This document shows, piece after piece, positions 552 through 57,900 of a stretch of 64,000 nt of DNA. Under the pieces are notes generated by a model. That model had not been told where the DNA came from. It made no database searches and saw nothing but the letters and a program-made list of their open reading frames with translations. The stretch's first letter is position 1. Each line of letters opens with the position of its first letter. The DNA is from Podarcis filfolensis (lineage: Eukaryota), in NCBI GenBank assembly GCA_964270895.1, contig OZ185446.1. One strand, 5' to 3'. The position numbers and the translations under genes are program-made.

Positions 552-881
552 TGTTATGTACTGAGTTGAATAGGATCCAAACTGCAGCAGTCTGATTGGT
601 CCTAGAACAATAGGATCCAAACTGCAGCAGTCTGATTGGTCCTAGAACAATGCAGCAGTATGATTGGTTGGCAGGAACTACCCAATCATGCTCCAGATAG
701 AAGTGAATCCACAACCTGATTGGCTTACAGTAGAATTCCGGAATTAGCCAATCATGTGCAGCCCATTGTGTAAATAATGTATATAAAGCAGATACTTTGA
801 TGGGACATTCATTCATTCCTCCTCACCACTATGAGCTGAATAAAGAGCATGAAATCACTTCGCGACTCTGAGTATATTTCA
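552..881 (+). repeat. 5' LTR (330 bp)
   Basis: Starts TGTTATG and ends TATTTCA. Two 40-bp units (569-608, 609-648), six CCAAT/ATTGG boxes, TATATAAA at 780-787, AATAAA at 839-844. Confidence 0.97.
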
Positions 882-882
882 C

Positions 883-900
883 TGGCGACGAAGGTGGGAT
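883..900 (+). promoter_or_regulatory. Primer-binding site, probably tRNA-Ser(GCU)
   Basis: TGGCGACGAAGGTGGGAT starts 1 nt after the 5' LTR. It is complementary to the recalled 3' end of vertebrate tRNA-Ser(GCU), ...AUCCCACCUUCGUCG-CCA. The tRNA identity is from memory. Confidence 0.8.
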
Positions 901-1005
901 CCCGCTGAGCTGACTGCCACACACAGCACCGCAGCACCGCCACCTGCCGCACCGCTGCCTCGCACCGTGTTCCAGGCTTCAGCTCCGGGACACAAGAAAC
1001 TCAGA

Positions 1006-4000
1006 ATGGCAACCGACAACAGCTTCTCGCCATTCAACCCAGCATCTGGAGACTGGGAAGCGTACGCCTCCCGTTTCACCTTCCTCCTAGAAGCCAAAGG
1101 GGTCACCGACGAAGAAGACGCCAAGAAGAGGGCGATATTCTTCAGCGTCTGCGGAGAGGAGACGTTTGAAATCGCCCGGGCTCTCCTTGCGCCTGAAGAC
1201 GTCGCTACTGTTCCATACAAAACAATAATGGAACAGCTGAAGGGGCACTTTTCGCCGCAGCCCTCAGTGGTGGCTCGTCGAAATGCCTTCTACGCAAAGC
1301 GGCAAGCCCCTGGGGAAACCATAACTGGGTTTGTGACCTCTCTCCGCCAAGCCGCCCGGTTCTGCAACTTCTCAGAGCTGGAGAACATGCTTCGTGACCG
1401 CCTCGTCGGTGGCCTGAAGGATGAGAAGCTGCAACGACGCCTCTACGCTAAGAAGGACCTAACGTTCCAGGTCGCTCTGGAGGAGGCCCTGGCAACGGAA
1501 GCTGCCAAGAGGTCGACGCAAGAGGCACGGCCGAGCCAGCTGTCCCAACTGAGGGTCCACCACGAAGACCTCACCGACGACTCAGGACCCGACAGGGAGG
1601 AGGTGCACCGAGTACAGCAGCGCACTCAAGCAGCCCACATACCACAGCTGCCTCGACGAGAAGGAGGGAACTGCGCAAGCTGTGGAGAAAGTCACGAGAG
1701 GAGGACCTGCCGTTTCCGCAACGCAGAGTGCAGGCAGTGCAGAAAATTGGGACACATCGCCCGGGTGTGTCGGGCTCGGCCCACCCGACGCCAGGCATCA
1801 GATGACCAATCCAAGAGCCCCAGGTCCCGGGGCCCAACGCACCAAGGCAACTCGACAGAGCTCACGGACTTCCAGGTATACCAGTTGCCCCACCCCAACG
1901 TAGAGAAAATTTATGTTGACGTACAGATAGAGGGGGCCCCATGCCGCATGGAGCTTGACACGGGTTCAACTCTATCCATAATCTCGGCAAGGACCTTAAG
2001 GAAACTGTGTCCTACTGGGGGTCCCAAACTCAGGCCGGCCCCATTCACCCTCCGGGACTTCCAAAAACGTAAGGTCCCCACAATGGGGGTGGGGACCTTC
2101 AGGGTGCAATACCGAGGGCGGACGCGGCAACTGGACTTGCTTGTGGTCAAGGGCCCCTACATTAGCTTACTGGGATTGGCATGGTTTGGACCACTGGGGC
2201 TAGCCGTCACCGGGGTGAACCACACTAGCTTACAAGTGGACGTGGACGCCATATGCAAGGAATTTCCGGGGGTTTTCGGTGGGAAATTGGGACAGTATAC
2301 GGGCCCCCCCATTGCTCTACAGCTTGACCCCGCAGTACGACCGGTCAGGCTCAAGGCCCGCCGGGTCCCGTTCGCCCTGAAACCCCGTATAGACGAGGAA
2401 TTGGACCGGCTCGTGGAGCAAGGAGTGCTGGAGCCGGTGCCTAATGCCCCCTGGGAAACCCCAATCGTCACGCCCGTCAAGCCTAATGGTTCAGTCCGCA
2501 TCTGCGCAGACTACAAATGTACCATAAACAAGGCCCTCACGGCCCATGCATACCCAGTGCCAGTGGTCAGCCATGTTCTTGCCACCCTGGCTGGGTCGAA
2601 AATTTTTGGCAAGCTGGACTTGGCCCAAGCATATCAACAGCTGCCAGTAGATGAGGCCACAGCAGAGGCACAGACGATTGTGACGCACAGAGGAGCATTC
2701 AGGGTAAAGCGGCTGCAATTCGGTGTCAGCGTGGCACCAGGCATATTCCAGAATCTAATGGACTCTCTACTTAAAGGGATTCCTGGCGTCACCCCCTTCT
2801 TCGATGATGTGTTGATTGCTGGGCCCACACCAGAGGAGTTTGAGGACCGCCTCCGCACCATTCTGCACCGTTTCCAGACGGCGGGTCTCAAGGTGAAGCG
2901 GGAAAAATGTCTACTAGGAGTGCCTCAGGTGGACTTTCTGGGATTTATGGTGGACGCAGAAGGGGTCCACCCGACTGGGGACAAGGTACGGGCCATTTGT
3001 GATGCCCCAGCGCCCAAGAACAAGACTGAACTTCAGGCCTTCTTGGGACTATTGAACTTTTACCATTCCTTCCTTCCCCACAAGGCGGCGGTAGCAGAGC
3101 CCCTACACAGACTCCTGGACAAGCGGGCCCCTTGGGTGTGGGGCCAGCGCCAGGAGGCCGCATTCCAGGCAGTCAAGGACTTGCTTGTCTCAAACTCGGT
3201 CTTGGCACACTTCGACGAGAGGCTGCCGGTGGTGCTAGCATGCGATGCCTCGCCCTATGGAATTGGCGCTGTCCTGGGACACCAACTCCCGGATGGAAGA
3301 GAGGTACCGGTGGCATACTTTTCCCAGACACTCAACGCAACCGAGCGGAACTACTCGCAAATCGACAAGGAGGGTCTGGCAATCGTGAAGGGAGTAAAAA
3401 AATTCCATGATTTCTTGTACGGGCGGCCCTTCACCGTGGTGACTGACCACAAGCCGTTGCTTGGCTTATTTGCCCCTGAAAAGCAGACCCCCCAAGTGCT
3501 GTCTCCTCGCGTCCTCAGGTGGTCAATTTTCCTTGCCAGCTACCAGTATGCACTGATTCACCATCCGGGGAAGGCGATGGGCCATGCGGATGCCCTCAGC
3601 AGGCTACCACTACCGGAAACAGGCCCCGACCCAGCACCTGCACAAGAGGTTATGAGCCTGGAGCTGCTTCCCGACCGCCCCATTCAGGCACAAGAAGTTG
3701 CACACCATTCCAAGAAAGATAGGGTCATCTCCCGGGTCCTGGACTGGGTGTGGAGGGGATGGCCCAGCAGCAGCCCCGGGCCAGAATTTGCCGGCTACAC
3801 AACCCGCAAACATGAACTGTCGGCCCACAAGGGGTGCCTGTTATGGGGAAGCAGGGTCGTTGTTCCCCAGCCCCTCCGCAAAAGGGTCCTCACAGCCCTA
3901 CACGAGACACACCCAGGGGTAGTAAGAATGAAGGCCCTTGCCAGGAGTTATGTGTGGTGGCCGGGGATCGACGGAGAGATAGAGGCCTGGGTCAAACACT

Positions 4001-5082
4001 GCCAGGCCTGCCAAGAATCCCGCCCAGATCCCCCAAGGGCCCCAGTCCAGTCCTGGGAGTCCGCCCGAGCACCATGGTCACGCCTGCATGTGGACTTCGC
4101 TGGTCCCTTTCAGGGGAAAACATTCTTCATAGTGGTGGACTCCTACACCAAATGGCTGGAAGTCGCACTGGTACCGTCCACTTCTACGTCCGCAGCCATC
4201 CGGGTACTACGCAGGCTGTTTGCAACCCACGGGCTCCCTGACACTCTCGTCTCAGACAACGGGACTGCATTTACGTCAGGAGAATTCCAAACCTTCACAG
4301 CGCAGAACGCCATCCGCCACATCCGTTCGGCGCCATTCCATCCTGCCACCAATGGCCAAGCAGAACGCATGGTGCGGACCACCAAGGACACCCTTCGCCG
4401 CATGACGCAAGGGGATTGGGAGTACCGCCTTGCCACATTCCTTCTAGCACAGCACAGCACCCCCAGCTCAACGACTGGCTGGAGCCCCGCTGAACTACTA
4501 ATGGGTCGGCGCCTTGCAATCAGATTGGACCGCCTTCACCCCGATAGAGCTCAGGATGAGGTAGGAGTGGGGGAAGGCAGGAACCCCTGGACCTTCGAGG
4601 CCCAGGACCCAGTGTACGCAAAGAATTTTGGGGCAGGCCCAGCATGGGTACCCGCCACAGTCACCAGGGTCACTGGCCCCGTGTCGTACGAGGTGCTAAC
4701 AGATGGAGGGCAATGCTGGCGCCGTCACTGCGACCAGATACGGCGACGATTCCCGGGAGAAAACCAGGAGGAGGAAAGTTCAGAGGAGTCCCAAGGGAAC
4801 AGAGGGGCAGTGAGGCCCATAGAGCACGAGGGGCCAGCAGGAGAGGCAGAATCAGTAAATACAGAGAGGACCTGCGAGGCCGAAAGGACACCGGAACCAG
4901 AACCACGACTGAGCGAGCCAGTTGCGCCAGACCAAATAGCCCCATCACAGCCAGCATCCTTGGAACACGAGCCAGAACCTGAACCCCGGACCAGGGAACA
5001 CCCCAGGCCGCAACGCACACGTAGGCCGCCAGCGTACCTCGAGGACTATGAATGCAACCTCCCGGGCAGGACTGGAACTTAG
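1006..5082 (+). CDS. Gag-Pol polyprotein, 1358 aa from the first ATG
   Basis: Gag with two Zn knuckles (CASCGESHERRTC, CRQCRKLGHIARVC), protease LDTGS, RT (KLDLAQAY...FFDD), RNase H (CDAS...E...TDH), integrase HHCC (LHETH...CQAC) and D,D35E core (HVDFAG, VSDNG, QAERM). No internal stop. The ORF track starts at an upstream GTG (967). Confidence 0.96.
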   Translation: MATDNSFSPFNPASGDWEAYASRFTFLLEAKGVTDEEDAKKRAIFFSVCGEETFEIARALLAPEDVATVPYKTIMEQLKGHFSPQPSVVARRNAFYAKRQAPGETITGFVTSLRQAARFCNFSELENMLRDRLVGGLKDEKLQRRLYAKKDLTFQVALEEALATEAAKRSTQEARPSQLSQLRVHHEDLTDDSGPDREEVHRVQQRTQAAHIPQLPRREGGNCASCGESHERRTCRFRNAECRQCRKLGHIARVCRARPTRRQASDDQSKSPRSRGPTHQGNSTELTDFQVYQLPHPNVEKIYVDVQIEGAPCRMELDTGSTLSIISARTLRKLCPTGGPKLRPAPFTLRDFQKRKVPTMGVGTFRVQYRGRTRQLDLLVVKGPYISLLGLAWFGPLGLAVTGVNHTSLQVDVDAICKEFPGVFGGKLGQYTGPPIALQLDPAVRPVRLKARRVPFALKPRIDEELDRLVEQGVLEPVPNAPWETPIVTPVKPNGSVRICADYKCTINKALTAHAYPVPVVSHVLATLAGSKIFGKLDLAQAYQQLPVDEATAEAQTIVTHRGAFRVKRLQFGVSVAPGIFQNLMDSLLKGIPGVTPFFDDVLIAGPTPEEFEDRLRTILHRFQTAGLKVKREKCLLGVPQVDFLGFMVDAEGVHPTGDKVRAICDAPAPKNKTELQAFLGLLNFYHSFLPHKAAVAEPLHRLLDKRAPWVWGQRQEAAFQAVKDLLVSNSVLAHFDERLPVVLACDASPYGIGAVLGHQLPDGREVPVAYFSQTLNATERNYSQIDKEGLAIVKGVKKFHDFLYGRPFTVVTDHKPLLGLFAPEKQTPQVLSPRVLRWSIFLASYQYALIHHPGKAMGHADALSRLPLPETGPDPAPAQEVMSLELLPDRPIQAQEVAHHSKKDRVISRVLDWVWRGWPSSSPGPEFAGYTTRKHELSAHKGCLLWGSRVVVPQPLRKRVLTALHETHPGVVRMKALARSYVWWPGIDGEIEAWVKHCQACQESRPDPPRAPVQSWESARAPWSRLHVDFAGPFQGKTFFIVVDSYTKWLEVALVPSTSTSAAIRVLRRLFATHGLPDTLVSDNGTAFTSGEFQTFTAQNAIRHIRSAPFHPATNGQAERMVRTTKDTLRRMTQGDWEYRLATFLLAQHSTPSSTTGWSPAELLMGRRLAIRLDRLHPDRAQDEVGVGEGRNPWTFEAQDPVYAKNFGAGPAWVPATVTRVTGPVSYEVLTDGGQCWRRHCDQIRRRFPGENQEEESSEESQGNRGAVRPIEHEGPAGEAESVNTERTCEAERTPEPEPRLSEPVAPDQIAPSQPASLEHEPEPEPRTREHPRPQRTRRPPAYLEDYECNLPGRTGT

Positions 5083-5092
5083 AGGGGAGGGG
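5081..5092 (+). promoter_or_regulatory. Polypurine tract
   Basis: AGAGGGGAGGGG directly abuts the 3' LTR. Confidence 0.9.
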
Positions 5093-5462
5093 TGTTATGT
5101 ACTGAGTTGAATAGGATCCAAACTGCAGCAGTCTGATTGGTCCTAGAACAATAGGATCCAAACTGCAGCAGTCTGATTGGTCCTAGAACAATAGGATTCA
5201 GAATGCAGCAGTCTGATTGGTCCTAGAACAATGCAGCAGTATGATTGGTTGGCAGGAACTACCCAATCATGCTCCAGATAGAAGTGAATCCACAACCTGA
5301 TTGGCTTACAGTAGAATTCCGGAATTAGCCAATCATGTGCAGCCCATTGTGTAAATAATGTATATAAAGCAGATACTTTGATGGGACATTCATTCATTCC
5401 TCCTCACCACTATGAGCTGAATAAAGAGCATGAAATCACTTCGCGACTCTGAGTATATTTCA
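5093..5462 (+). repeat. 3' LTR (370 bp)
   Basis: Identical to the 5' LTR by eye except for a third, slightly diverged 40-bp unit (5190-5229). Confidence 0.97.
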
Positions 5463-5765
5463 AGGAGAATGGGCCTTTTCTGCGATGGCTCCCTGTTTGC
5501 ACAATTCTCTCCCCAGGGAGGTTTGTCTGGCACCTTCATTATAATCTTTAGGTGAAAATGTTCCTCTTCAACCAGGCCTTTGGCTGATTAATATTCCACA
5601 GCCTGATAAATGTTTGTTTTTGTATGGGTGGGTGGGTGTGTTTTGTTTTGTTTTTGTCTTGGTTATTTATTTGTGCATTTATCCTGTATTTTTATCTTGT
5701 GAACTGCCATGCTATCTTCGGGCGAAGGGCAGTGCATAAATTTAATTAATTAATTAATTAATTAT
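5463..5765 (+). mobile_element. L2-like LINE 3' fragment, right part with simple-repeat tail
   Basis: Continues EWAFSAMAPCLHNSLPREV (L2 AFSxxAPxLWNxLP motif), then a T-rich 3' UTR ending in (TAAT)n at about 5740-5764. Confidence 0.7.
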
Positions 5766-6679
5766 GCAGAGTCTATGTGCATACAGCAGGCTCCACAGCA
5801 GACGTTTGCCCATCAAAATGTGGAGGGCAGGACAAACTGGCCTGAGGACATGACAGAAGGGGCAGGGCTAGCACACACACCCCTTGCCTTCTGCCTTATA
5901 ATACTCATGCCTTTTGACAAAACAGCTTTATTGCATGAAGGAAAGACTACATTTTGTAAACACATGGTGCACACATTGGTTGTGGGTCCCCAGCATCTCA
6001 AAAGCCCCCCCCCCCCAGGGCAAGTGTCCTCAGACTCTCATTTCCCCTTCAAACGCTACAGCAGTCACCAAGAGAGAAGCACCCGATGAGCAGCCAATTT
6101 GTAAAGTCTGTACTGACCCACAGGCATCCTTTTAACCCAAATGGAACTCAACTGCAGGTTGTCATCCCCCTAGATTTACTGGCTGCGAGCAATTCCTCTC
6201 CCTTCCTCCCTCTCTAATCAAACCAAAACATGCTCTTGGGTTTTCTGTTCTTTTCATTCTGCTGAAATCAGTGGGTACCTATTTGTATACACAAAACAAC
6301 CAGAGGGAAGGATTTATGGACTTTCAGGAACTGAACCCAATAGCAGAGTAAGGCAATAAGGACATAGGCTTTGCTGCTGATGTTTTAAAGATGGAGACAT
6401 GGAAGAAATAAAATTAACCAAGGGGAAAGCTATTTACTCTTCTTGGAACCGGAATTATAACTGAGCTGTTTGCTCCCAGCTCAGCCAGCCTAAAAACTAA
6501 AAATCTCAATTCTCAATTAAGGAGATTCAAAAAGGGGTGGGGCTTTTTGTAGGCATAAGAGTGTTAAAAATAAAGTGGAAATTGTAAAAGGCCTGAGAAG
6601 CAACAGCTATTGAAAGAAGCTGTGTGCAATCCTAGAATAGCATTTTCCTATACACCCTTCATGATCACCACTAGGGCTT

Positions 6680-6805
6680 TGGGATGGACTCTCATGGACT
6701 CTCCCTCATTGGAGGGTCTTGAAGAGAGGTTTGATGTCTTTCTTTAGCTGTGATTCCTGCATTGCATTGACGACCCTTTGTGCCCCTTCTGATGCTACAG
6801 TTCTG
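6680..6805 (+). mobile_element. Degenerate CR1 3' end
   Basis: GGACTCTCCCTCATTGGAGG...GATTCCTGCATTGC...ACAGTTCTG resembles the recalled CR1 3' UTR. Confidence 0.55.
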
Positions 6806-7563
6806 GTAGAAAGTGGATATTGGAAACAAAGGGGTGCCAAAGAAGAAAAAACAAGGCAGTTCAGAATCTCATATTAAAATATATATTGGACTGTGCAATA
6901 CTATGCATGCCTAGGAAGAAGTTATTTCTTTACTGCATCTGTCTTTCCAAGAACCTTGAAATGACGGGCACCAGCCTTTCCAAACCTGGTGTCCTCCATC
7001 TGTTATAGGACCCTGGTTCCCATAAGCCACAGTCCATGTACCCAGTGGCCAGCCCTGTTGCACAATCTGATGTGTTCTTATGCCCACAAGACTCGCTTTT
7101 CATGTAAAGCACCCCCAAATTCCACAACATATTGCTCACCTTAGTGGATGGCCTCTTAGGATGCCAAAGCTGCCATCCATAATCCCTGTGCTTATCCCAC
7201 TACGGTTGGAATGGGTTGGGGGGATTTTGCATGCTCCATAGTTAAGCCATACCTTCATTTCTTGCACCTGGAGCACAGCTTTTTGCTTTTAAAATTGAAC
7301 TTCTTTGCTCCCAGAGAAAACAATGGGGACCTACTGTTATGGGTTTGAGAGGGGGACAGATTCCCCTAAAAGTCCTGGGTACAATATCCCCCCTACCCCC
7401 ATAATTTCTAGAGTTAATAAATGTAGAAGATTACTAGATGCTTGAAGTCTTCACCCAGGTGTGAGGCAGCTTAGCAGTGTAGTAATTCAGGCTGAATCAG
7501 TTCCCTGGAATTGGCTGGGGAGAAGAACTATCATGCAGTATAAAGCAAGGTAATGGGTAATTA

Positions 7564-7921
7564 GGGATGCAGGTGGCACTGTGGGTTAAACCACAGGGCC
7601 TAGGACTTGCCGATCAGAAGGTCGGCGGTTCGAATCTCTGTGATGGGGTGAGCTCCCGTTGCTCGGTCCCTGCTCCTGCCAACCTAGCAGTTCGAAAGCA
7701 CGTCAAAGTGCAAGTAGATAAATAGGTACTGCTCCGGCGGGAAGGTAAACGGTGTTTCCATGTGCTGCTCTGGTTCGCCAGAAGTGACTTAGTCATGCTG
7801 GCCACATGACCCGGAAGCTGTATGCTGGCTCCCTCGGCCAATAAAGCGAGATGAGCTCCGCAACCCCAGAGTCGGTCACAACTGGACCTAATGGTCAGGG
7901 GTCCCTTTACCTTTACCTTTT
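7564..7921 (+). mobile_element. Sauria SINE (lacertid type)
   Basis: tRNA-like head with B-box GGTTCGAATC (7627-7636), (ACCTTT)n tail, 12-bp TSD TAATGGGTAATT (7551-7562 and 7922-7933). Confidence 0.92.
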
Positions 7922-8224
7922 TAATGGGTAATTGACACAAACAGTTACTCTGTGCTGGGCAGTGAAGGAGAGTGTGAGCCTCTCCTTCCATGAGGGGATG
8001 GTGAGCAGAGACAAAGGGCAGGTAAGAGATCTTGGGGGTTTTGGTGGACAGCTCCATGAAAATGATGACCCAGCTGTAAAAGGTGAGTAATGGTAAAGAT
8101 TTGTAAGAGTATGTATGCTGGAAAGAAAGTGTGTGGGGGGGTTCTCCTTCTGTCAAAAGAGCAGAACTCTGGGTCGTCTGGTGAAGCTGAATAGTGGAAA
8201 GCTCAGAAGATACAAATGAAGTAC

Positions 8225-8560
8225 ATCTTCACACGGTTAAACTATGGAATTGCGGCAGTGGGCACCACCTTAGGCAGCATTCAAGGGGGATTAGACAAAT
8301 GCATAGAGGACAAGGCTATTAACCCATACTAGTGATGGCTATTTGCTGCCTCCCGATCCAAGAACATAAGGTGCATGTTTCTTAATAGCACTTGCTGGAG
8401 AGCAACAGCAAGGGAAGCTATTGCCCATTAGGGCAAAATAAATATTGCCCTAACGTTAGCTTGCAGGATTCCCACTGGCATCTGGCTGGCCATTGAGGAA
8501 AACAGGATGCTGGGCCAGATAGGCCTTTGGTCTGATCCCACAGGGGTCTTATTATGCTCA
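8225..8560 (+). mobile_element. Degenerate CR1 3' fragment
   Basis: Ends AACAGGATGCTGGGCCAGATAGGCCTTTGGTCTGATCC...TTATG. The same tail recurs near 10510-10625, 15590-15675 and 36180-36250. Confidence 0.55.
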
Positions 8561-9187
8561 GATCCTCAGCAACAGTCATTCATAAACTTCCAGCATAAAG
8601 CCGCCGCAAGAGAGATCGTGCCGTTGCTCCAAGTCAGCCATGCATTCTGAAGCTTTGGGTGACAATGTTGCAATAGTTTCAAAATTGGACCAAAACAGAG
8701 GAATTGCTGTTATGGCTCTTTCACAAAGGCCGCTTGTAGGAAGTGTCCTCGTCCCGTGCTCCTGCTCTGTCGACTTGTGCAGCAAGTGTTGTTGGCGGAG
8801 GAAGCCAGAAACTCATCCAAGTGTGCTGTGGGGTCCCCACGCATTGAAAGGTTACAAGACCCATAATGCTTTCTAAATGCCATCTTACTCAGAAAACATG
8901 TCTAAGGAGTCCTGTGCTCAGGGGCTAAGAACAAACTGGAAGCAGAGACTGAAATGTGGTCTTTTGAACCTCTTTCGTTAGGAGCAGAGAAACCATAGGC
9001 CTGGGGACCAAATAAGGCTCTCTGGACTTGAGGCTTTCCTCAGACCCCACCCCTTCTCCGCAGGTCATGCTCTGCCCCAGGCCTCCTTCAAGTGATTTTG
9101 CCTTTCTGGAAACTATGATAAGGTCTCTTTCTTGCCTGGATTGGGGTGGGTGCATATAGAAGCCTGAAGCTTTTGCATTGCTGGAAT

Positions 9188-9678
9188 TGTTGTTTAGTCG
9201 TTTAGTCGTGTCTGACTCTTCGTGACCCCATAGACCAGAGCATGCCAGGCACTCCTGTCTTCCACTGCCTCCCGCAGTTTGGTCAGGCTCATGTTTGTAG
9301 CTTCGAGAACACTGTCCAACCATCTCGTCCTCTGTCGTCCCCTTCTCCTTGTGCCCTCCATCTTTCCCAACATCAGGGTCTTTTCCAGGGAGTCTTCTCT
9401 TCTCATGAGGTGGCCAAAGTATTGGAGCCTCAGCTTCACGATCTGTCCTTCCAGTGAGCACTCAGGGCTGATTTCCTTCAGAATGGATAGGTTAGATCTT
9501 CTTGCAGTCCATGGGACTCTCAAGAGTCTCCTCCAGCACCATAATTCAAAAGCATCAATTCTTCGGCGATCAGCCTTTTTTATGGTCCAGCTCTCACTTC
9601 CATACATCACTACTGGGAAAACCATAGCTTTAACTATATGTACCTTTGTTGGCAAGGTGATGTCTCTGCTTTTTAAGA
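9188..9678 (-). mobile_element. RTE-BovB LINE, 5'-truncated
   Basis: Minus strand encodes ...VFPVVMYGSESWTIKKADRRRIDAFELWCWRRLLRVPW...RWLDSV (BovB C-terminus). (AAC)n tail and 9-bp TSD TGCTGGAAT (9179-9187, 9679-9687). Confidence 0.93.
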
Positions 9679-10821
9679 TGCTGGAATGTAGCCTATGGTT
9701 AAAGTCATTGCCCCAACCACTTTTGCCTCTGGCCCTGACTACCACTGGCATGTGGCCCCTGAAAGGTTCCTAATGGTAGAAAGTGGCCCTTGGACTGGAC
9801 CTGCTTTAACTTCTTGCCTGTAGCTGTTGTCTAGGGTCCATGCTCATGCAACACTAAGAGTTAATCATTTATTGTCTTTTTTTGTGCAAAAATAAATGAA
9901 TTTCAAATTATGCCCGAACTATTTTTTTTTTATGTTACACTAAGCTTTTGGATATTCAGACCTAAAATATTATGTATTAACACACCCCTGCCCACCCAAC
10001 TCTCATTTTCTTTTTGAGGTCACACCCAGAACGTTGGTATTAGCTAACCCCAAGTCTATAAAATGACTGCAGTGTTTGATCCAGTCCCATTTGTCTGTAA
10101 TTAACGCCAGTTGGCTTCCATTCCCATTCTTCATTAAACTGGAAAATCTCTTTTTGCGAGTGGGAAAGGACCGAGCAGTGACGTAAGACATCAGAGGTTC
10201 AGCTCGGTGCCACCAAAATGTTTCCTTGTGTGGCTCTGACTAGTCATATTAAAATGACTTTTCTCTTCTTGGAAGATTTAGAGCCCAAAGTCTAGTCAAA
10301 TGAACTGCAAGAAAACAGATCAAAACAACACAAGAAGCATGGCCACAGATGAAACTTGGCTCCTGGCTCATCTCTTGGTGGTGGACAGCTAAGAAAGAGA
10401 AGCTGGAGGGTTGTGGTCAGCATCACTCCCTAGGTCTCTGGTATCTCTGCTGTCATTGCATGACCAGCAGTGAGCCCAGGGGAGATGGTGTCTCATGGAG
10501 ACAACACTGTTGCATTTAGATCCTGCTTCCAGGTTTTACATAGACATCTGGCTGGTCACTGTGAAGGCAGGATGCTTGACTAGATGGACCACTGGCCTGA
10601 TCCAGTGGGATTCTTATGTTCTTAACACTGGGTGTCACTGTCTCCAGGAGACAGGGCTTCTCTTCGTCCAGCCAGATGAAATTTGGCACCTGGCTTGCCT
10701 CTGAATTTGGATGCTGGCGATGTGTGATGCTAGAGGCATATGATGTCAAAGTCTCCTCCCCAGGTCTGTGGTGTTCTTGGTGCTGTTGTCCTTGCACACT
10801 CACAACAGGGCCTGGCGAAAT

Positions 10822-10823
<2 letters not shown>

Positions 10824-10895
<72 letters not shown>
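10824..10895. repeat. Compound microsatellite, about (TC)22(AC)14
   Basis: Read directly from the sequence. Confidence 0.95.
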
Positions 10896-10897
<2 letters not shown>

Positions 10898-13858
10898 CCA
10901 GAAGCTGCCAAGAGGTGCTACGTGTATCTCCATAGAGCATGGCTATATTAACGAGGTGAATTCTAATCACTTTCCAGTGCTACATTATCTGGATTGGTGA
11001 CTTCTCATACTCTTTTTTTTTTTAAAAAAAGATACAGGTGCAAGACAAATTTGGGAAATGAGTCCATCACTACACTTTTGATGTCACTACGATACTTGAA
11101 AGTATGTGTGCTAGTCAACTAAAGCCATGATTCTAAGGAGACTTGATGGAGAAAAAATATGCTCATTGAATGGGCTTACTTCTAATGAAACATTCTAAGG
11201 ACAGCATGGCATAGCCAAACTCTCTCACACATACACTCACTAACATAGATCTTTAACACTAGAGATTTTGTACATATTGTTCATCGTATTATTCCAAGAC
11301 CTGAATGCTATTTCCTCTAGTTTAGTTCTGCATGAGTAACTCCAAATGTGCTTAAAGGGCCAGGAAGTATTTCTGGGGTCGCAATACAGTAGTAGCCAAA
11401 GGAAGGTAGACAGAGATTATACTAATGTTGATGCAATCAGTAGATTTGTGCTGTTAGCAGTGTTTGAAACTCCTATTGTTCTAGGCGCATTTTGCAACAG
11501 GGAATTTAATTAGTGCGAGCAGTTTCTGAGCTCTGGGCGCAGTACTGCGCCCAAGATTTCAGATTAAAACCATAGAGTAGAAGGAAAGGAGGACCTTTTT
11601 CTGCCTCCCCACTTCCAGCTACTCTATGAAGACTGGAGAAGAGACCCTCTTAAGAATATTAGGTGGGTGGGCTTGGGAAGGACTAGACCATGTGAAAAAT
11701 GAACATAATATTTTAGTTGAAATTCATTCATTTTCAGCTTTGTATTGTCCTTATTAAAAAAGTGTGCCTATACATTCCATTGTTGCACCCATAACCTATA
11801 TTCAAGGTTCCATTTAGCACCTAGCTTTTATATCTCAGTTTCTAACACTGTCTCCAACCTGTTTCTGCATTCCTGTGCTCCCTACTTCTGAGAGCATTGA
11901 TCCACTACTGTTCTTTCCTTTCCTACAAACCTTTGCCCATAAATTCTCAGTTCTGAGAACCTGTTTTCATGACTGCATCTGCAAATGTCAGCTGCAAGGA
12001 GATCATGTGTGCTTGCCTACAGACATAGGAATCCAGGTTCTGTTCTGCCACCACTAACTCACATTTAGGAGAGCTTACAGAAGTTTGTCAAAAGACATCA
12101 TTCTGTGCGCATTGGTGGCACATCAGCAGGCATAAATGACCAGCTCTCAGTGGGCTAGGGAAGTGTTCTTCAACCTAGAGTTCAGGGATGATGGAAGCTG
12201 TGGTTCAGCAACATCTGAAGCGTCAAAGGCTCCCTACACTTGCCGTGGGAAAACACATACGCAAAGAATGTAAGTAAACTCAACATTCTGGTCGTACAGC
12301 ATGGACATTCCCTCAGTGTACCTATTTCTCAATCTGCTTTGTTTTTACTAGAGTCTCAAGGTCCATCAACTGGAACCTGCTGCAAAATAGTGACCAAGTG
12401 GTGGTGGTAGCAGTAGCAGACATAGCATGTTTAGGATTAAGGGGCAGGGCACCTCTGAACACAAGTTCAGCTCAGGAGTGTCCGTTTGGTACCAGAACTG
12501 AGTTCAGAACTCTTTAACACAGAAATCTGCGCTCTCTTTTTTTTCTCCTTAAGCTTCCTTAACAAGGACTTTCTTTTTCCTCTTTTAAGTGGGTTCCTGC
12601 AATAAAGAGGAAAAAGAAAGCCCTTGTTGTTGCAAATTTGAAACAATTGGGAACCAGGAATCCCTGCTGATCTACCACAGATCACCCAGAGCTCTACCAG
12701 TAGACCCTGATCCAACTTCTGCCCTGCTATAGATCCCAAAGTAAATTGCTGAGAGATATGATTACAGGGGAAAGCACCCTGTCACCTGGTCAAACATACC
12801 TCCCATTGGGGGAGTCTTGTTTGGTTCTCAAATAGAACTTTGACAACACACTTAAAAGTCTGGGAACTATATAGCTACATGGGGATTCTTAAAGCTATTG
12901 TGGGGTGGGAACACCATGGTTTCTTTGTAACTGAGTCATTACAAAGGACTGTGTCCTTAAGATTTCTTTCTCTATTGTCCCACAACCATTTCATGTGCTC
13001 AGGCAGGACATAGGGCGAATTACACAATACTGTACAATGTTTGTACCCATCTAAATTTTGCTTGTTGAGCTGAGTTTCACTTCCAGCCTCCTTACTGTAC
13101 ATGAGTCTGAAGGAGACCTCCCCCAGAAGACACTGGTGTGTCCAAAGGTATCACCTTACTAATTTTGCCTCCCTCCCAGGGAAGTTTTGAAATAGATGTT
13201 TGCAGAAAGGGGGCTGGGTGTACCCATGTTCTCAAGAAAGCACCACTAAAGTTAAACTAAGTTCCATGAATCATAGCCCCCATCCCTTCTAAAGATCAGA
13301 TCTGACTAAATTAAAACCTTTCAGTTTTAATGTTTCAGAAGACACTAGCACTAAATGGTTTTCAAGGGCCATAAAGGGAAAACAACAGCAAACATAAACA
13401 GCCCGAATTGTCTCAAATGTGTTTTCCCTTTAATTAAATAGGAACCATCTGTCGGAGGGGGTGGGGGAGGGGTTTGAAGTGGATGCAATCCATCCATATG
13501 ATGCCTACACTGGTTTCCACCCAGCCTCCATTATCCTGAAAGTTCTCCCCTCTGAAAAGAATTAAATAAGCATGCAGCGCAAGGGTACCTTTTTGCTCCA
13601 CCCAACCAGACAGAAATCCCTGCGCATATGGAGGGAGATGCAAAAGACTGGGTGCTAAACACTGAGTGCACACAGATTTCAGCTTCAGAGAGGAACACTG
13701 AACAAGGAGCTCACTATGTAAAACTCAAGGCCGGCCCTCTTAAAAAAGAAATACGAAACAAAAACAAGGACTCCAGTGTAAATCACATTGCATGAAAACA
13801 TCCGGGGTGGGGGAAGGTTCAGGACACCCAGGAAAGTTAGTGAAGGTGGAGAGCCTAA

Positions 13859-14552
13859 GACCACATTCACAACACCATGGTGCCACTTTAAAGACTTCTG
13901 ACTTCCCCCAAAGAATTCTGGGAACTGTAGTTTGCTAAGGGCGCTGAGCAGGGCTGGACCAATACTTGTTGGCACCTGAGACATATCGCAGAATGCTCCA
14001 TGTCCCCTGCTATGACAAAAAAAGGGTGAGTGAAGATCTATATCGGGAACGGGATGGGAATAATGAGCTACATCAGGAACAAGGGCGGTAGGAGACCAAC
14101 AGTGCCTCCTATTTGCCAGAAGGCTGCTGTAGAGGTGGCATGGGGTGGGGGCGCTGCCAAGGTAGTGTCAGATCTGGCCTCCAAGGAGCGTGCCACAGCC
14201 ATTGTTGCCACCATGGCGGCGGCAGCAGCAGGAGCAGGTGGCTATTCATTTCTTGGAGACTTGATCTGATGGCCCTGTAGATCCTGCCACCTGAGGCAAG
14301 TTGTCTTACCTTGCCTCATGGGTGGGATAGCTCCTGTGCTGCGAGTTGTTAGGAGACCTTTATTCCCCAGTGTTACAATTTCCAGAGTGGTTGAACAATC
14401 AATCCTTCACAGGGAACTCTGGGAATTGTAGCTCTGGGAGGGGGGAAGAAACTCTCAACACCCTTAACAAGCTATAGCTCCCAGAATTCTTTGGAGGAAG
14501 CCATGTTCAAAATAGTGTCATGGTGCTTTAAATGTATAGTATGAATGTGGCC
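13859..14552. mobile_element. PIF/Harbinger-type palindromic MITE with a nested insertion (about 13949-14336)
   Basis: TIRs G(A/G)CCACATTCA / TGAATGTGGCC with TAA TSD (13856-13858, 14553-14555). The nested piece has CAGGG..CCTG ends and resembles 60913-61095. Confidence 0.75.
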
Positions 14553-14798
14553 TAAGTAGAAGCACTGGAGGTCATAGCACTGCTATCTCTTTGGGGAACC
14601 CCATGGAATCCTTCCTCACAAAGCACATACATACAAACACCCAAGAGTGGTGTTTCCTCCTGGGAAGTTGCAGAGAGTTAGGTCAGGCAAATGACCACCA
14701 TTGGAGGGAATGCCACAGGGAGTAGGCACAGCTTCATCAGAACTTGGGTTCAACTACATGTTTCCATACCGATGTTGACACAGAACCAGTTCACTTAC

Positions 14799-14923
14799 TT
14801 GTATTATCAAATGGGATCTGTTTACAGTCAGCGGCTGGCCAAGGGCAATGGTAGACTGCTCCTCCTTCCACGATGTCTGGTTGGGTAGTGTTGGCCTTAG
14901 GAGCTCCAACTAGGACGCTTACT
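14799..14923 (-). CDS. ITGA8: Integrin alpha-8, coding exon 2
   Basis: [49 protein letters not shown] acceptor, GTAAGT donor, 125 nt, phase matches exon 1. Confidence 0.95.
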
Positions 14924-15139
14924 CTGCAAAACATCCATAGGCGTTCATGAACAAGGATGAAATAGCAAAAGTCAGCCATTTCATTGAAACATGGCTGTTT
15001 GCTGAAGGCTAGCTCAATAGCTAATTAAAAAAAACAACTTATAAGCATTCAACAAGAATAAATAATGGTCAAGCACTTTTTGGAATAAGTAATTAAACAG
15101 TTGGTTGGTGAGCACTTAGAAAAGGATGCTGTGATTACT

Positions 15140-15445
15140 AAGATTACTAAATATGGGTTTCTCAAAAACAAGTCATACCAGATGAATCTCATTTTTTTCT
15201 TTTTTGAGTTACAAGCTTGGTGGATAAGGGAATACTGTGGACATAGTGTGTCTTGATTTCAGTAAGGCTTTCGACAAAGTCCTCCATGATATTGTTGTGG
15301 AGAAGCTGGTAACCAAATCCAAAGAGTGCTCACAAACAGTTCCTAATTATCATTGGGGAAAAGTGCTGCAGGGTTCTGTCCTAGGCCCATTGTTGTTCAA
15401 CATCTTTATAAATGACTTGGATGAAGGTATTGAGGGGTTGTTAAT
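15140..15445 (+). mobile_element. CR1 LINE reverse-transcriptase fragment
   Basis: DIVCLDFSKAFDKVLH...QGSVLGPLLFNIFINDLDEG, with an internal deletion. Confidence 0.9.
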
Positions 15446-15967
15446 CCAACATACATGCCACCTGAGAAGCTACGCCATGAATTCTGCCTTCTGCCTTATT
15501 CTTTGGATGTCTAAATAGGGTTACAGGACAACTTCTCCACCAAGCTCATCATTAACATGCCCCCATGCCCTGCTGGTGGGTTTCACAGAAGCATTTGGCT
15601 TATCTCTGTGGGACACAGGATGTTGGGCTAAACAGGCCTTTGGCCTGATCCAGCAGGGCTCTTCTTATGTTCTCAACTTAAGGAAAATTCATTGCCACAT
15701 TACATTGTGAAGTCCAGTAGAGTAGACAGCTTTCAAAGCAAAGATGAAAGGGATTCACAAGGGATAGGTCTGTCAGTGGTCATGACATTGCTACAAACAA
15801 GCTCTACGTATGTTTAGAGGGAGTGTACTACTCATCGTAAGAAGCTAGGAACAAACAAACAACTAGGGGTTGTGAACTGTTTGTGAGCCATCTGGGGGAA
15901 ACTGCTGCATAAACAGACTTTTGGCTTCACCAGGCAAATTCTGTTGATCTCAGTAAGAAGGCCAAAG

Positions 15968-16121
15968 GGCTCATTCGGTACAGCATGAGACCCTTCATCT
16001 CAAGGTCATGGGTTCGAGCCCAACATTGGGTGAATAACTCTTGCATTGCAAAGGGTTGAACTAGTTGACCCTTGTGGCCCCCCTTCCAGCTCTGCAATTC
16101 TATGATTCTGTGAGTCTATGA
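15968..16121 (+). mobile_element. tRNA-Lys-derived SINE with CR1 tail (Squam2-like)
   Basis: GCTCA...GGTTCGAGCCC head and CTATGATT tail. A second copy lies on the minus strand at 31871-31997. Confidence 0.75.
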
Positions 16122-16830
16122 ACTAGCTCTCACATCACCACCATCCATTGGCTGGTGCATTAGGGGCGTCAGTCACTACTGTCAGCACCACCATCATATG
16201 CTGAAGGCAGAAAGGAGGCAGGTTTGAGGGACCCCACCCTGCCACTGATGTTGTTGGACTCCAGCTTCCATCAGACCTAACCAGCTTGGCCAGTGGTGAG
16301 GAATGATGGGAGTTGTAGTCCAGCAAAATACAGAGGGCCACAGGTTTCCCATACCTGCTTTAAGGTAAGTCAGTATTAGTATCTCCCAATTTTGGAGACA
16401 GGAGGACTAATGGCTGAGAAAGAATGGCTTCGTCTAAGGCTACCATGAGAGTTGGTGGTGGAAGACTCAAACCAGGGGCTTTCATAGCTCATAGACACTA
16501 TGCTCTATTTGCTCCGTATAGGCGTTGGCCCCAAAGCTGGCCATAAGCCATACACCAGCATCTTCTCTGCTCCAGAAAATCTGCTTGCAGATCTCCAATG
16601 TGACACCAACATTCCATGAATTCATTTCTCAAATATTGGGATGACTCTCTCCTGTCCCTGGTCCACATTCCCTCCAAATATTTGATAGACCCAGGAGCCA
16701 TTCATATGTGTACATTCATCACTAGGTTACTGCAAACACCACATGTATGGGTGAATGGGACATCACAGATCAAACATTGCAAACAGAACTCATCTCAAGC
16801 ACCATGCTTTTCAGTGGATTAAATCTATGC

Positions 16831-16966
16831 CAGGCATAGGCAACCTCGGCCCTCCATATGTTTTGAGACGACAATTCCCACCATCCCTGACTACTGGTCC
16901 TGTTAGCTAGGGATGATGGGAGCTGTAGTCCCAAAACATCTGGAGGGCTGAGTTTGCCTATGCCTG
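16831..16966. mobile_element. 136-bp palindromic hAT MITE
   Basis: TIR CAGGCATAGGCAA / TTGCCTATGCCTG, perfect 8-bp TSD ATCTATGC. Confidence 0.92.
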
Positions 16967-18195
16967 ATCTATGCATTCTGTTACTACATGTACAGTAATA
17001 CAGGGTAGACTGATGGCATGCAAGCCTGCCTATGGCCACACCGGGTCTCATCAAAGCAATCAGCTCAGTCTATTCAACCTGGCAACAATCCACAGCCTAC
17101 AAGAGAGAGGTTTTAGTGCAGCACCCACTGACGTCTAAAGAGAGAGTCCACAGAACTACTATCAATAGAAAACTGCTGTGCACCTTAAATTGGACAATTG
17201 CAGTTTGATTTCCTGCCCAGTTAAGGCAAAGTAATTGGCTTTAATCCTGTCAAATTCAGTAGGGCTGAATCAGCAGAAAAATGCGCTTCTATTTAAGTCG
17301 CAGAAAGCATTTCACTGTAACACACACACAACTTGTTCTTAATGGGCTTCACAGATGCTCTATGAAATACACAGTCTAAACCCGGAGGGTGCATCTTAAG
17401 TGACTTGCCAGTGATACTGTCAGGCTGTGCCACTGTGCCTATATGTGCCCCTGACGCAGCCTCACAGAAACTCCTACTTAAATCTAGATTTCTACAATTG
17501 CATTGATTTCAGCACCATGGTTGTGTAGAGTGTGGGCACCATGCATTTAAAGCAACCCCCCCCCCCAAACAATCCTGGAAACTTTAGTTTCCCTTCACAG
17601 AGGTACAACTCTCAGCATCCTTGACAAACTGCAATTCCCAAGAATCTTTTAAGGGAGTGGGGTGGGATATGCTTTAAATGTGTTCTTCACATCAACCCAC
17701 GGATCGGTAGACCTGCACATTGTGACGCTGCTCTGGAGGAAAAGGATACTGGATGCTTCGCGATCTGTCCACATGCATCAAATAGCAAGAGACGCTGCAT
17801 TTGGTTCAACTTAACTGCCTTGAAATCAGTCCGGACTCTGCGGTCTGGACTAAGAAGGATACAGGATCCACTCCATTCTCTAGTCCAGATCGCAGAAGAC
17901 CTATTGGTGGAACTTCCCACCAGCCCATTGCAATCTCTCGCTGTATGATAACTGTATGATTGAACTCTCTACTTGAGTTCAATGGGCTTACTCCCAGGTA
18001 AGTAGCCTTGCCTATGTAAACCTATATGTACGCCTACTGGAAAGTATGTCTCGCTGGGCTCAGCGGAGCTGCTGACTTTCGAGAAAGCCAGCTGCAATCC
18101 CTTCACTGACTTGGGAGTAAGTACTTCTTTGGACTTGCTTCCGAGTAGCCGCGCCTAGACGGCTCCCGCTAGGAAAGAGTACGCGCATTGCTCTT

Positions 18196-18375: not shown

Positions 18376-19100
18376 CGTCCCAAGGGCAGCCGACCGACTC
18401 CCACCAGCTCGCGAGGACGGGCGGCGAGGTCTCCGCAGCCGCTGAGCCCTATATATATATATATAAGCGCCGGGCGCTACTTACGCGTGGGGCGCCGGGC
18501 TGTAAAAATCCAGCGCGTAGCCGAAGTAGCTGCCGTCGGGGCCGCCGTAGACGGCGAGCTTCTCCTGGTCCAGGTTGAAGGCGCGCAGCGTCCCGGCCAG
18601 CGGCGCCAGGAGCAGCAGCAGCGAGAGCAGCGCGCCGCCGCCCGCAGCGCAGCGCCCGCACCAAGGCGCCGCCGCCGCCGACGACGACCCGAGCAGCGGC
18701 AGCAGCGGCACCAGCAGCAGCCTCCGCCGCCGCCTCCACATCCTCCCGGCAGCCGCTCCCTCCCTCGCTCGCTTGCTCTCCTCAGGAGTCCCAAGCGGCG
18801 GCGGCGGCAGCGAGGAGCTTGAAAGGCGCCGCTGGGAGCCTCGCCGGGCTACCTCTGGCCGCCGCCGCTGCCGCCCCCGCGCCTCGCTCTGCGCGCGCCG
18901 CCCGCCCGCCCGCCTGCCAGGAGGTGGCATGGCGAGGGAGGCGCAAAGCCCGCCGCTGCCGGCCGTCGGGGCAGCGCGCGAGGAGTGCCTGACTGGGCGC
19001 CCCCTGGTGGCCTCGGCCGGGCCGCGACGGGGAGGGGAGGCGGGGGGGCCGAGCCCGCCAAACGCAGACGCCGCCGCCCCGCTGATGGCCCTTCCATTCC
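18250..19100. promoter_or_regulatory. CpG island / ITGA8 promoter and first exon
   Basis: Very GC- and CpG-rich with GC-box runs (CCCGCCCGCCC), against an AT-rich background. Confidence 0.9.
18485..18741 (-). CDS. ITGA8: Integrin alpha-8, coding exon 1
   Basis: Leader followed by FNLDQEKLAVYGGPDGSYFGYALDF (integrin-alpha N-terminus; recalled human ITGA8 FNLDVEKLTVYSGPKGSYFGYAVDF). GTAAGT donor. Start codon uncertain: an in-frame ATG also lies at 18930. Synteny with MINDY3 supports ITGA8. Confidence 0.92.
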
Positions 19101-51199: not shown

Positions 51200-51340
51200 N
51201 NNNNNNNNNNNNNNNNNNNNNNNNNNNNNNNNNNNNNNNNNNNNNNNNNNNNNNNNNNNNNNNNNNNNNNNNNNNNNNNNNNNNNNNNNNNNNNNNNNNN
51301 NNNNNNNNNNNNNNNNNNNNNNNNNNNNNNNNNNNNNNNT
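51200..51340. other. Assembly gap (141 N) in MINDY3 intron 1
   Basis: Run of N. No coding exon is missing from the reconstructed CDS. Confidence 0.99.
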
Positions 51341-56899: not shown

Positions 56900-57900
56900 G
56901 AGGAGGCCGGGACGTACCTTGTGCCCACCGGCAGAAGATGGTGTCGGCGAGGCCCTGCGTGCCGGGCTTCTTGCCCCACACCAGGTGGACGACCTCCTGC
57001 CCCAAGTCAGCCATGGCGGCGGCTCCCGGCGGCGGCGGAAAGGCGGCAGCGGCGGCGGCACAGGCGACGGAGGGGCGGCGGCCAACCTGCGTTCGCTGAA
57101 CATGGGCAGGAGGCGGAGGAAGCGGCGGCGAAGCGGGCTCCTCACGAGGCGGCGGCTGCCGGGCCTGAAGGGGGAGAAGCGAGGGATGCTGAGAAAGGGG
57201 GACAGGGGCAGACGGAGGCCCAGCGCCGCCCGTTGAGGCGCTTCTCCCTCGACAGAGGGCCGCGCCTCCCTACCCCGGCTTCCCCTCAGAGGCCACGCCT
57301 GAGGAGGCCGCGCTTCCCCGCGAGGGGCCGCCTGGACCGACTCCCCCGTCGGGCGTCGCGGATGGTTATACTGACCGGCCTTTCTGCTCTTCCTCCTTCA
57401 CTGCTGCGCGCGCGCGCCCGCCTGCCTCACCCGCTCCCTTCCTCAGGGCTCAGTAGTAATACTGAATGGCGGGGTTGGGCACTACCGGCAACCCCCATTG
57501 GAGCAGCTCCTTGACAAGCAAGCACCTCGTCGAATGGGAGGCGTCGAAGCGGGGCTCACTTTCTCCCCCGCCCATCCTGACTCGGGGAGTTAACAACACG
57601 GTCAGAAGCGGGGCGGGGAAGGGAAGGGAAGGGATGCACACAAACACGCTCGGCCGCACGCCAATCAACAACAGGACTGGCTGTGATTCGACTGAGCTGC
57701 GCGACAGGCATGTAGGCGGGCCAATCCACGGCGGGCGGGCGGGCGGGCGGGCGGAGCTGGAGGAAGGGCGAGATGCTCATTCATAGGGTGGGTACAAAGA
57801 AGGGTTCGTTTCAAAGTGGGAGAGTCCCGCCCGGCTCTCGCTTCCTGTATGAATGCTCTGTGCGCGAGTGTCTAGGTAAAAATGGGAAGAGTCGTCGTGC
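56900..57900. promoter_or_regulatory. CpG island / MINDY3 promoter
   Basis: CpG-rich, CCAAT boxes at 57661 and 57721, (GGGC)n GC-box run at about 57731-57752, (CG)n run at 57406-57417. Confidence 0.88.
56918..57014 (-). CDS. MINDY3: MINDY3 exon 1 (coding part)
   Basis: MADLGQEVVHLVWGKKPGTQGLADTIFCRWAQ, perfect Kozak GCCGCCATGG, GTACGT donor. All 15 exons sum to 1338 nt (445 aa + stop). Confidence 0.95.

Follow-up and report, generated by a model that had tools for sequence, protein, structure and literature searches.

A stretch of 64,000 nucleotides from the lizard Podarcis filfolensis (assembly GCA_964270895.1, contig OZ185446.1), referred to here as the window, carries at positions 552-5462 a full-length Ty3/Gypsy retrotransposon with long terminal repeats (LTRs), a primer-binding site (PBS), a polypurine tract (PPT) and an unbroken frame for Gag, protease (PR), reverse transcriptase (RT), RNase H (RH) and integrase (IN). 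We are confident that this element is intact and very young, that it comes from a large Ty3/Gypsy family of lacertids which is likely to belong to the Mag lineage, that it sits in what is likely to be intron 2 of ITGA8, and that the insertion is likely polymorphic and near-neutral.

The 5' LTR (552-881, plus strand, 330 bp) and the 3' LTR (5093-5462, plus strand, 370 bp) both run from TG to CA, and the former contains a TATA at 780 and an AATAAA at 839. No substitution was found between the two over 330 aligned columns; they differ in length because the 5' LTR lacks one of the 40-bp repeat units present in the U3 of the 3' LTR. The PBS (883-900, plus strand, 18 nt) complements the 3' end of a genome-encoded tRNA-Ser(GCT) isodecoder. 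A pattern search of the genome for the PBS complement gave 11 matches, as against none for the control, and ARAGORN, run on six of the PBS-matching loci, placed a tRNA-Ser(GCT) at the match in four, a tRNA-Ser(AGA) in one and no tRNA in the last; where the match complements the element's own PBS exactly, the tRNA was called as tRNA-Ser(GCT). The PPT (5081-5092, plus strand) overlaps the stop codon of the coding frame and abuts the 3' LTR.

A single gag-pol open reading frame (ORF) extends on the plus strand from the ATG at 1006 to the TAG at 5082 and encodes 1358 aa with no internal stop. It includes two nucleocapsid zinc knuckles (1672-1770, aa 223-255), of the form CX2CX3HX4C at aa 223 and CX2CX4HX4C at aa 242. 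The aspartic protease (1915-2187, aa 304-394) has its DTG at aa 318, and its Pfam match lies below the curated cut-off; this is followed by RT and RNase H (2509-3543, aa 502-846), identified both by Pfam and by a solved-structure match, with FFDD at aa 598 and the D/E/D/D residues of RNase H, and by the zinc-binding domain and the start of the DDE core of the integrase (3862-4344, aa 953-1113), where HHCC and DDE were both recognised. The Pfam domains thus follow the order protease, RVT_1, RT_RNaseH, Integrase_H2C2 and rve. The CpG observed/expected ratio is 0.62 in the element, compared with 0.10 (1-551) and 0.21 (5463-18000) in its flanks. A preliminary description made from the letters of the window had listed these traits, namely an ORF free of stops and frameshifts, recognisable catalytic residues with two zinc knuckles, an intact PBS and PPT, LTRs without point differences and abundant CpG in a CpG-poor host, and every one of them was confirmed. 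An endogenous retrovirus or errantivirus was considered and rejected as no env is present; since the ORF stop overlaps the PPT adjoining the 3' LTR, there is no room for one.

We searched the genome for the exact junction between LTR end and PBS and obtained 609 matches, while the reversed control gave none. A DNA search of the same genome returned 1589 candidates, the best 29 of which were scored. All 29 are full length and 97-100% identical to the window copy, from which they differ by 0-117 substitutions; 25 have no stop in the frame of the window copy, and each catalytic motif is unchanged in 28-29 of the 29. The window copy groups with three copies lying 10, 15 and 16 substitutions away and, less closely, with one more that is 56 substitutions away; the remaining 24 copies are 92-117 substitutions distant. 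For a less biased sample we took 38 loci spanning the first 40 listed matches on contig C1 (one was skipped as already sampled and two fell in one tandem locus). Both LTR ends were found automatically in 26 of them, and the remaining 12, which were truncated, deleted, tandem or unparsed, were left out of ORF scoring. The two LTRs are identical in 19 of the 26, with a mean LTR divergence of 0.13%, and an ORF of at least 1300 aa was present in at least 20 of the 38 loci. Extrapolation of this last fraction gives about 320 open-frame copies in the genome (95% range 220-420).

The 40-bp tandem unit in the U3 of the LTRs (569-651 and 5110-5232) varies in number family-wide, giving LTRs of 290, 330 and 370 bp. 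We rejected the 40-bp length gap of the window copy as a sign of age, because three of the 26 sampled C1 copies also have unequal unit numbers in their own two LTRs, each with 0-1 LTR substitutions. One C1 locus (G000:C1:25285200-25295000) is a head-to-tail tandem in which the elements share one LTR and the two PBS junctions are separated by 4.6 kb.

The 120 proteins most similar to the window protein are mostly squamate. Trees were built with FastTree, after 13 of 121 rows with less than 90% coverage had been dropped, and with IQ-TREE on 29 rows under LG+G4; both hold only relatives that were named automatically. In the 29-row tree the window protein is sister to a Zootoca vivipara protein with 100/100 support. 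This protein belongs to a lacertid family called 'uncharacterized protein K02A2.6-like' (Zootoca vivipara XP_060126817.1 cluster, with Podarcis raffonei members), which is 96% identical over RT-RH-IN, has 133 members and measures 1356 aa as compared to 1358 aa in the window. Many of its full-length members have been annotated by NCBI, under the automatic protein name only. The window copy is an unexceptional representative of this highly active lacertid family, whose members are already annotated as proteins. The preliminary description had proposed a recent insertion from an active squamate family and had suggested looking for near-identical copies; the 609 junctions, the copies only 10-16 substitutions away and the lacertid origin of the nearest named proteins all bear this out, and the absence of close paralogues, named there as grounds for doubt, is not what was found. 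Literature searches covering titles and the starts of abstracts, with subscription journals and Repbase outside their coverage, returned no paper dealing with the lacertid family or with Gypsy transfer between squamates and ticks.

Comparison of the copies provided further signs of recent movement. The ratio of non-synonymous to synonymous differences (pN/pS) was 0.17-0.21 between the window copy and seven copies of the main subfamily, and 0.33-0.90 between it and its four closest relatives. Across 29 copies it was 0.20 for shared variants and 0.49 for singletons (Fisher p=8e-5), as is typical where lineages are under selection while they replicate and individual copies drift once inserted. 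LTR elements recopy their PBS from the primer in each cycle, and the copies carry three forms of the PBS that correspond to three tRNA-Ser 3' ends encoded in the genome. The match of the PBS variants to three tRNA isodecoders, taken with purifying selection between subfamilies, shows recent retrotransposition, and at the level of the family activity is well supported. Singleton substitutions among the copies include 76 CpG transitions out of 211, and from this we infer that inserted copies are methylated. The window copy itself has only three private substitutions in 4911 bp. At a mutation rate of 1-2e-9 per site per year this corresponds to an age of at most a few hundred thousand years, and less if some of the substitutions are RT errors. 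A review describes most transposable element families of the anole as apparently recently active (PMC5381603).

The direct TG...CA LTRs, the PBS, the PPT, the order PR-RT-RH-IN and an RT closest to that of Ty3 all place the element within Ty3/Gypsy, and its best solved-structure match is yeast Ty3 Gag-Pol (PDB 7q5b, 4ol8; E=5e-87 over RT-RH-IN). Ty3 itself relies on a frameshift, is primed by tRNA-Met and directs its integration to Pol III targets, whereas the lacertid family has one frame and tRNA-Ser priming and, in the flanks seen, no target preference is evident. A Gag with two CCHC-type knuckles, as found here, is associated with Mag. In its fused gag-pol of 1358 aa, its length of 4.9 kb and its tRNA-Ser(GCT) PBS the window element resembles the Mag lineage (Mag, SURL, fish Jule, pufferfish Mag1/2 and Xenopus Mag). 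Pufferfish Mag elements are described as 4.7-4.8 kb long with a single fused gag-pol of 1330-1365 aa (PMC11117352), and mosquito ones as having a tRNA-Ser or Leu PBS and mostly a 5-bp target-site duplication (PMC3286476); Mag elements are further reported to form A/B/C clades (PMC6238403) and to occur in frogs (PMC4131045). The 5-bp duplication is matched by the lacertid family as a whole, whereas the window copy has 3 bp, and the window LTRs differ from those of Mag in being longer (330-370 as against about 200-300 bp) and in their variable 40-bp tandem unit. The Gmr1 clade and the V-clade chromoviruses share a Ty3/Gypsy RT with the window element, and a fused gag-pol is also described for Gmr (PMC11117352). 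Both were rejected, the former because IN lies upstream of RT in Gmr1 (PMC2774666) and follows RNase H here, and the latter because no chromodomain was present among seven Pfam matches (E<=0.001). Judged by its structural features, the window element would work like a Mag element and very probably is one. The label Mag-like in the preliminary description agrees with all of these structural features.

The element lies antisense in the approximately 25-kb intron 2 of an RGD-class integrin alpha gene. Exon 2 of the gene (ITGA8-like) is at 14799-14923 and the coding region of exon 1, inside a CpG island, at 18481-18825, both on the minus strand and with approximate bounds; exon 3 is located about 10.4 kb to the left of the window, also on the minus strand, with later exons further on. 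The best solved relative of exon 4 is alpha5, at only about 60% identity, with lower scores against alphaV and alphaIIb, and an ESM Atlas search with this exon gave no usable match. Exon 1 of MINDY3 was seen in a CpG island at 56,900-57,010 (minus strand), upstream of the integrin gene and co-oriented with it, and we take ITGA8 and MINDY3 to be neighbours. The host gene is thus likely to be ITGA8, a name reached by elimination and from the presumed MINDY3 neighbourhood. An ITGA8 intron 2 location had been given in the preliminary description, and of this the intron position is confirmed.

Evidence on polymorphism came from sequencing reads. Part of the right flank was contained in 20 runs from seven studies. 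Read contigs were compared with 5428-6100, and the left and right junctions were examined separately; at the right junction X1 and X3 were informative, X5 and X7 not. Run X1 (organism A, sample S1) yielded an exact 58-nt contig (5435-5492) across the right junction at a depth of 43, together with a second contig starting exactly at 5463 at a depth of 127; the depth was 91 in the distal flank and 114 in the left flank. In run X3 (organism A, sample S2), an 87-nt contig matches 5463-5541 exactly and its first eight letters are not LTR. Indirectly, these contigs suggest that the site is heterozygous in S1 and empty in S2. The possibility of a polymorphic insertion, raised in the preliminary description, is in this way given indirect support by suggestive right-junction contigs in X1 and X3, which fall below the bridging rule applied.

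Several points weigh against our interpretation and need to be set out together. The junction contig of X1 is composed of 28+30 letters and so falls short of the 31-letter bridging rule, the eight extra letters of X3 are known only as non-LTR, contig depth is not a copy number, and X1 is possibly the source sample of the assembly itself. Among the contigs listed none crosses the left junction (551/552) in X1, X3, X4 or X7, the flank there being a high-copy repeat. Two of the three private substitutions of the window copy change amino acids, outside the catalytic motifs, so that the copy itself may or may not still be competent. The Mag placement rests on structure, and the ITGA8 name on elimination and presumed synteny. 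One could argue from some of this that the insertion, though real, is of greater age and has become fixed in the species, its LTR identity being due to slow mutation or to gene conversion between the LTRs. The absence of differences over 330 bp bounds LTR divergence only to below 0.9%, the family is old in lacertids as judged from its 96% amino acid identity to the Zootoca copies, and the evidence for an empty site is indirect. Against such an age stand the small number of private substitutions over the whole 4911 bp, the X3 contig in which the flank gives way at 5463 to letters that are not LTR, and the flank contig of X1 that starts at exactly this position, like a branch between two alleles. 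We consider an old, fixed copy very improbable, and a young and segregating one remains our preferred interpretation.

A further alternative is that the insertion matters to its host, either by LTR-driven antisense RNA reaching into exon 2 and exon 1 or by methylation that dampens the gene, in which case it would be a segregating regulatory allele. The intact TATA-bearing LTRs do point towards the 5' end of the gene, and mice null for Itga8 are reported to show renal agenesis (10.1101/2022.02.03.479061). The same source, however, describes normal ITGA8 protein from one functional allele, and the element is far from the exons: exon 2 is 9.3 kb away and exon 3 about 11 kb, while the CpG island lies at a distance of 13 kb. 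On the strand of the host gene the element contains neither AATAAA nor ATTAAA, and the CpG decay of the sister copies is typical of silencing. We regard a regulatory role as very improbable and an effect of the insertion on the integrin gene as unsupported; the position in the intron is most likely incidental. The weight placed on a kidney gene in the preliminary description is accordingly not borne out for an antisense copy, one of hundreds, that lies deep in a large intron with no poly(A) signal on the gene strand.

The junctions of the window copy are unusual for its family. It is flanked by a 3-bp duplication, AGG, at 549-551 and 5463-5465, and it interrupts an older high-copy host repeat, presumably L2-like, whose left half (460-551) and right half (5463-5605) are colinear. 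When the three bases are counted once, the interrupted repeat aligns without a gap at the junction with two other copies of the repeat. The AGG duplication assumed in the preliminary description is real; that it is abnormal for a family which makes 5 bp was not flagged there. A 5-bp duplication was found in 23 of the 24 top-hit copies outside the subfamily of the window copy, and at the C1 loci it was perfect in 26 of 31 scorable cases and had one mismatch in two. In the five-copy subfamily to which the window copy belongs, four of the five junctions are abnormal: besides the window copy, L002 has 5 bp plus an extra GG inside a microsatellite, L004 has a 4-bp duplication, and L005 has a 3' LTR that is 12 nt short and a 7-bp duplication, while L003 is normal. 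Outside the subfamily only four of 55 junctions were abnormal (L030, L053, L064, L078; Fisher p=7e-4, rising to p=0.003 when only the C1 sample is used for comparison), a comparison that is post hoc with n=5 and in which L002 and L004 are possibly assembly slips. L005 and L068 (G000:C2), about 30 kb apart, are alike in their flanks and in the truncation of the 3' LTR, and represent either a local segmental duplication or an assembly duplication after insertion; as L068 shares the junctions of L005, the pair was counted once.

At their left junctions L002 and L064 carry an extra GG before the 5' LTR, identical to the last two bases of the PPT. This is likely the footprint of an unprocessed cDNA end. 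The origin of the window copy may be pictured as follows. RNA of another family member would have been packaged in Gag particles, copied with host tRNA-Ser(GCT) as primer and inserted by integrase. Joining would have been normal at the right (U5) end but imprecise at the left (U3) end, which was resolved 2 bases short, leaving a duplication of 3 bp and not 5 bp. Before processing, this left end would carry the last GG of the PPT, and GG microhomology was perhaps involved. Since then the copy may have begun to be methylated like its sister copies.

It would be tempting to hypothesise that a small, recently spread subfamily integrates sloppily as a heritable trait, through a natural variant of the integrase or of the att site. 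Four core copies of the subfamily differ from all 24 others at 55 evenly spread columns, with eight fixed amino acid differences, two of them in the integrase and none in RT or RNase H. A search with a subfamily LTR marker gave ten matches, corresponding to four known full-length copies, one solo LTR and one rearranged fragment. The solo LTR has one subfamily marker, is only 98% like the window LTR and has a normal 5-bp duplication; its membership is doubtful, and it speaks against heritable sloppiness. We hold such a trait to be possible and on balance unlikely. In a separate observation, L088/L046 (G000:C7:35033698-35036724) is a subfamily copy that is broken after about 450 internal bases and continues with an inverted LTR start. 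That intactness and odd junction are both assembly artefacts, from polishing with reads of sister copies, is barely credible, for while hundreds of copies about 98% identical would allow mis-polishing and the left junction is unconfirmed in reads, the window copy has private variants and its subfamily differs by about 2% from the bulk of the family, its right junction is exact in the X1 contig, and the interrupted repeat remains colinear with two other copies.

Two groups in the protein trees deserve mention as they hint at movement between hosts. A Rhipicephalus microplus element (P0016, a 41-member cluster from several assemblies) and a cluster with Ixodes scapularis (P0013), both from hard ticks, are paired with each other within a clade that is squamate in all other respects, at 100/100 support. 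Forced grouping of the 18 squamate or squamate-like rows was rejected by the approximately unbiased test (p-AU 0.022), a post hoc test under LG+G4, which over-rejects, with two rows being unnamed ENA records. On the protein sequences this suggests an old horizontal transfer between squamates and ticks in a sister family; the tick elements are 68% identical to the window protein, which makes this an old event and not the origin of the window copy. In addition, Podarcis muralis elements (P0019, P0059 and P0120; a 121-member cluster with 1370-aa copies) nest among snake elements and not among the other lacertid ones, possibly by lizard-snake transfer or by old lineage sorting.

Elsewhere in the window, fragments at 7,560-8,230 and 9,190-9,770, noticed through their ORFs, are repeat-like and presumably resemble a Sauria short interspersed element and the 3' end of a BovB/RTE long interspersed element. 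The only run of N in the window (51,200-51,339, 140 bases) is far from the element.

The single copy in the window adds little beyond one example of its family. The family itself, with some 220-420 open-frame copies, is a good natural system for the study of LTR retrotransposition and its silencing in the amniote germ line, and it is a rich source of presence/absence markers. Its value as a natural system follows from the fact that, as far as is known, mammals and birds no longer have any mobile Ty3/Gypsy elements. If the subfamily of the window copy does integrate sloppily, an integrase or att-site variant would have been caught in a vertebrate germ line, within a Gypsy burst of about 600 copies still segregating in wild lizards and belonging to a wider clade that would have passed between squamates and hard ticks, and a heritable anomaly of this kind would make it possible to study in nature how the spacing of target sites is set by Gypsy integrases.

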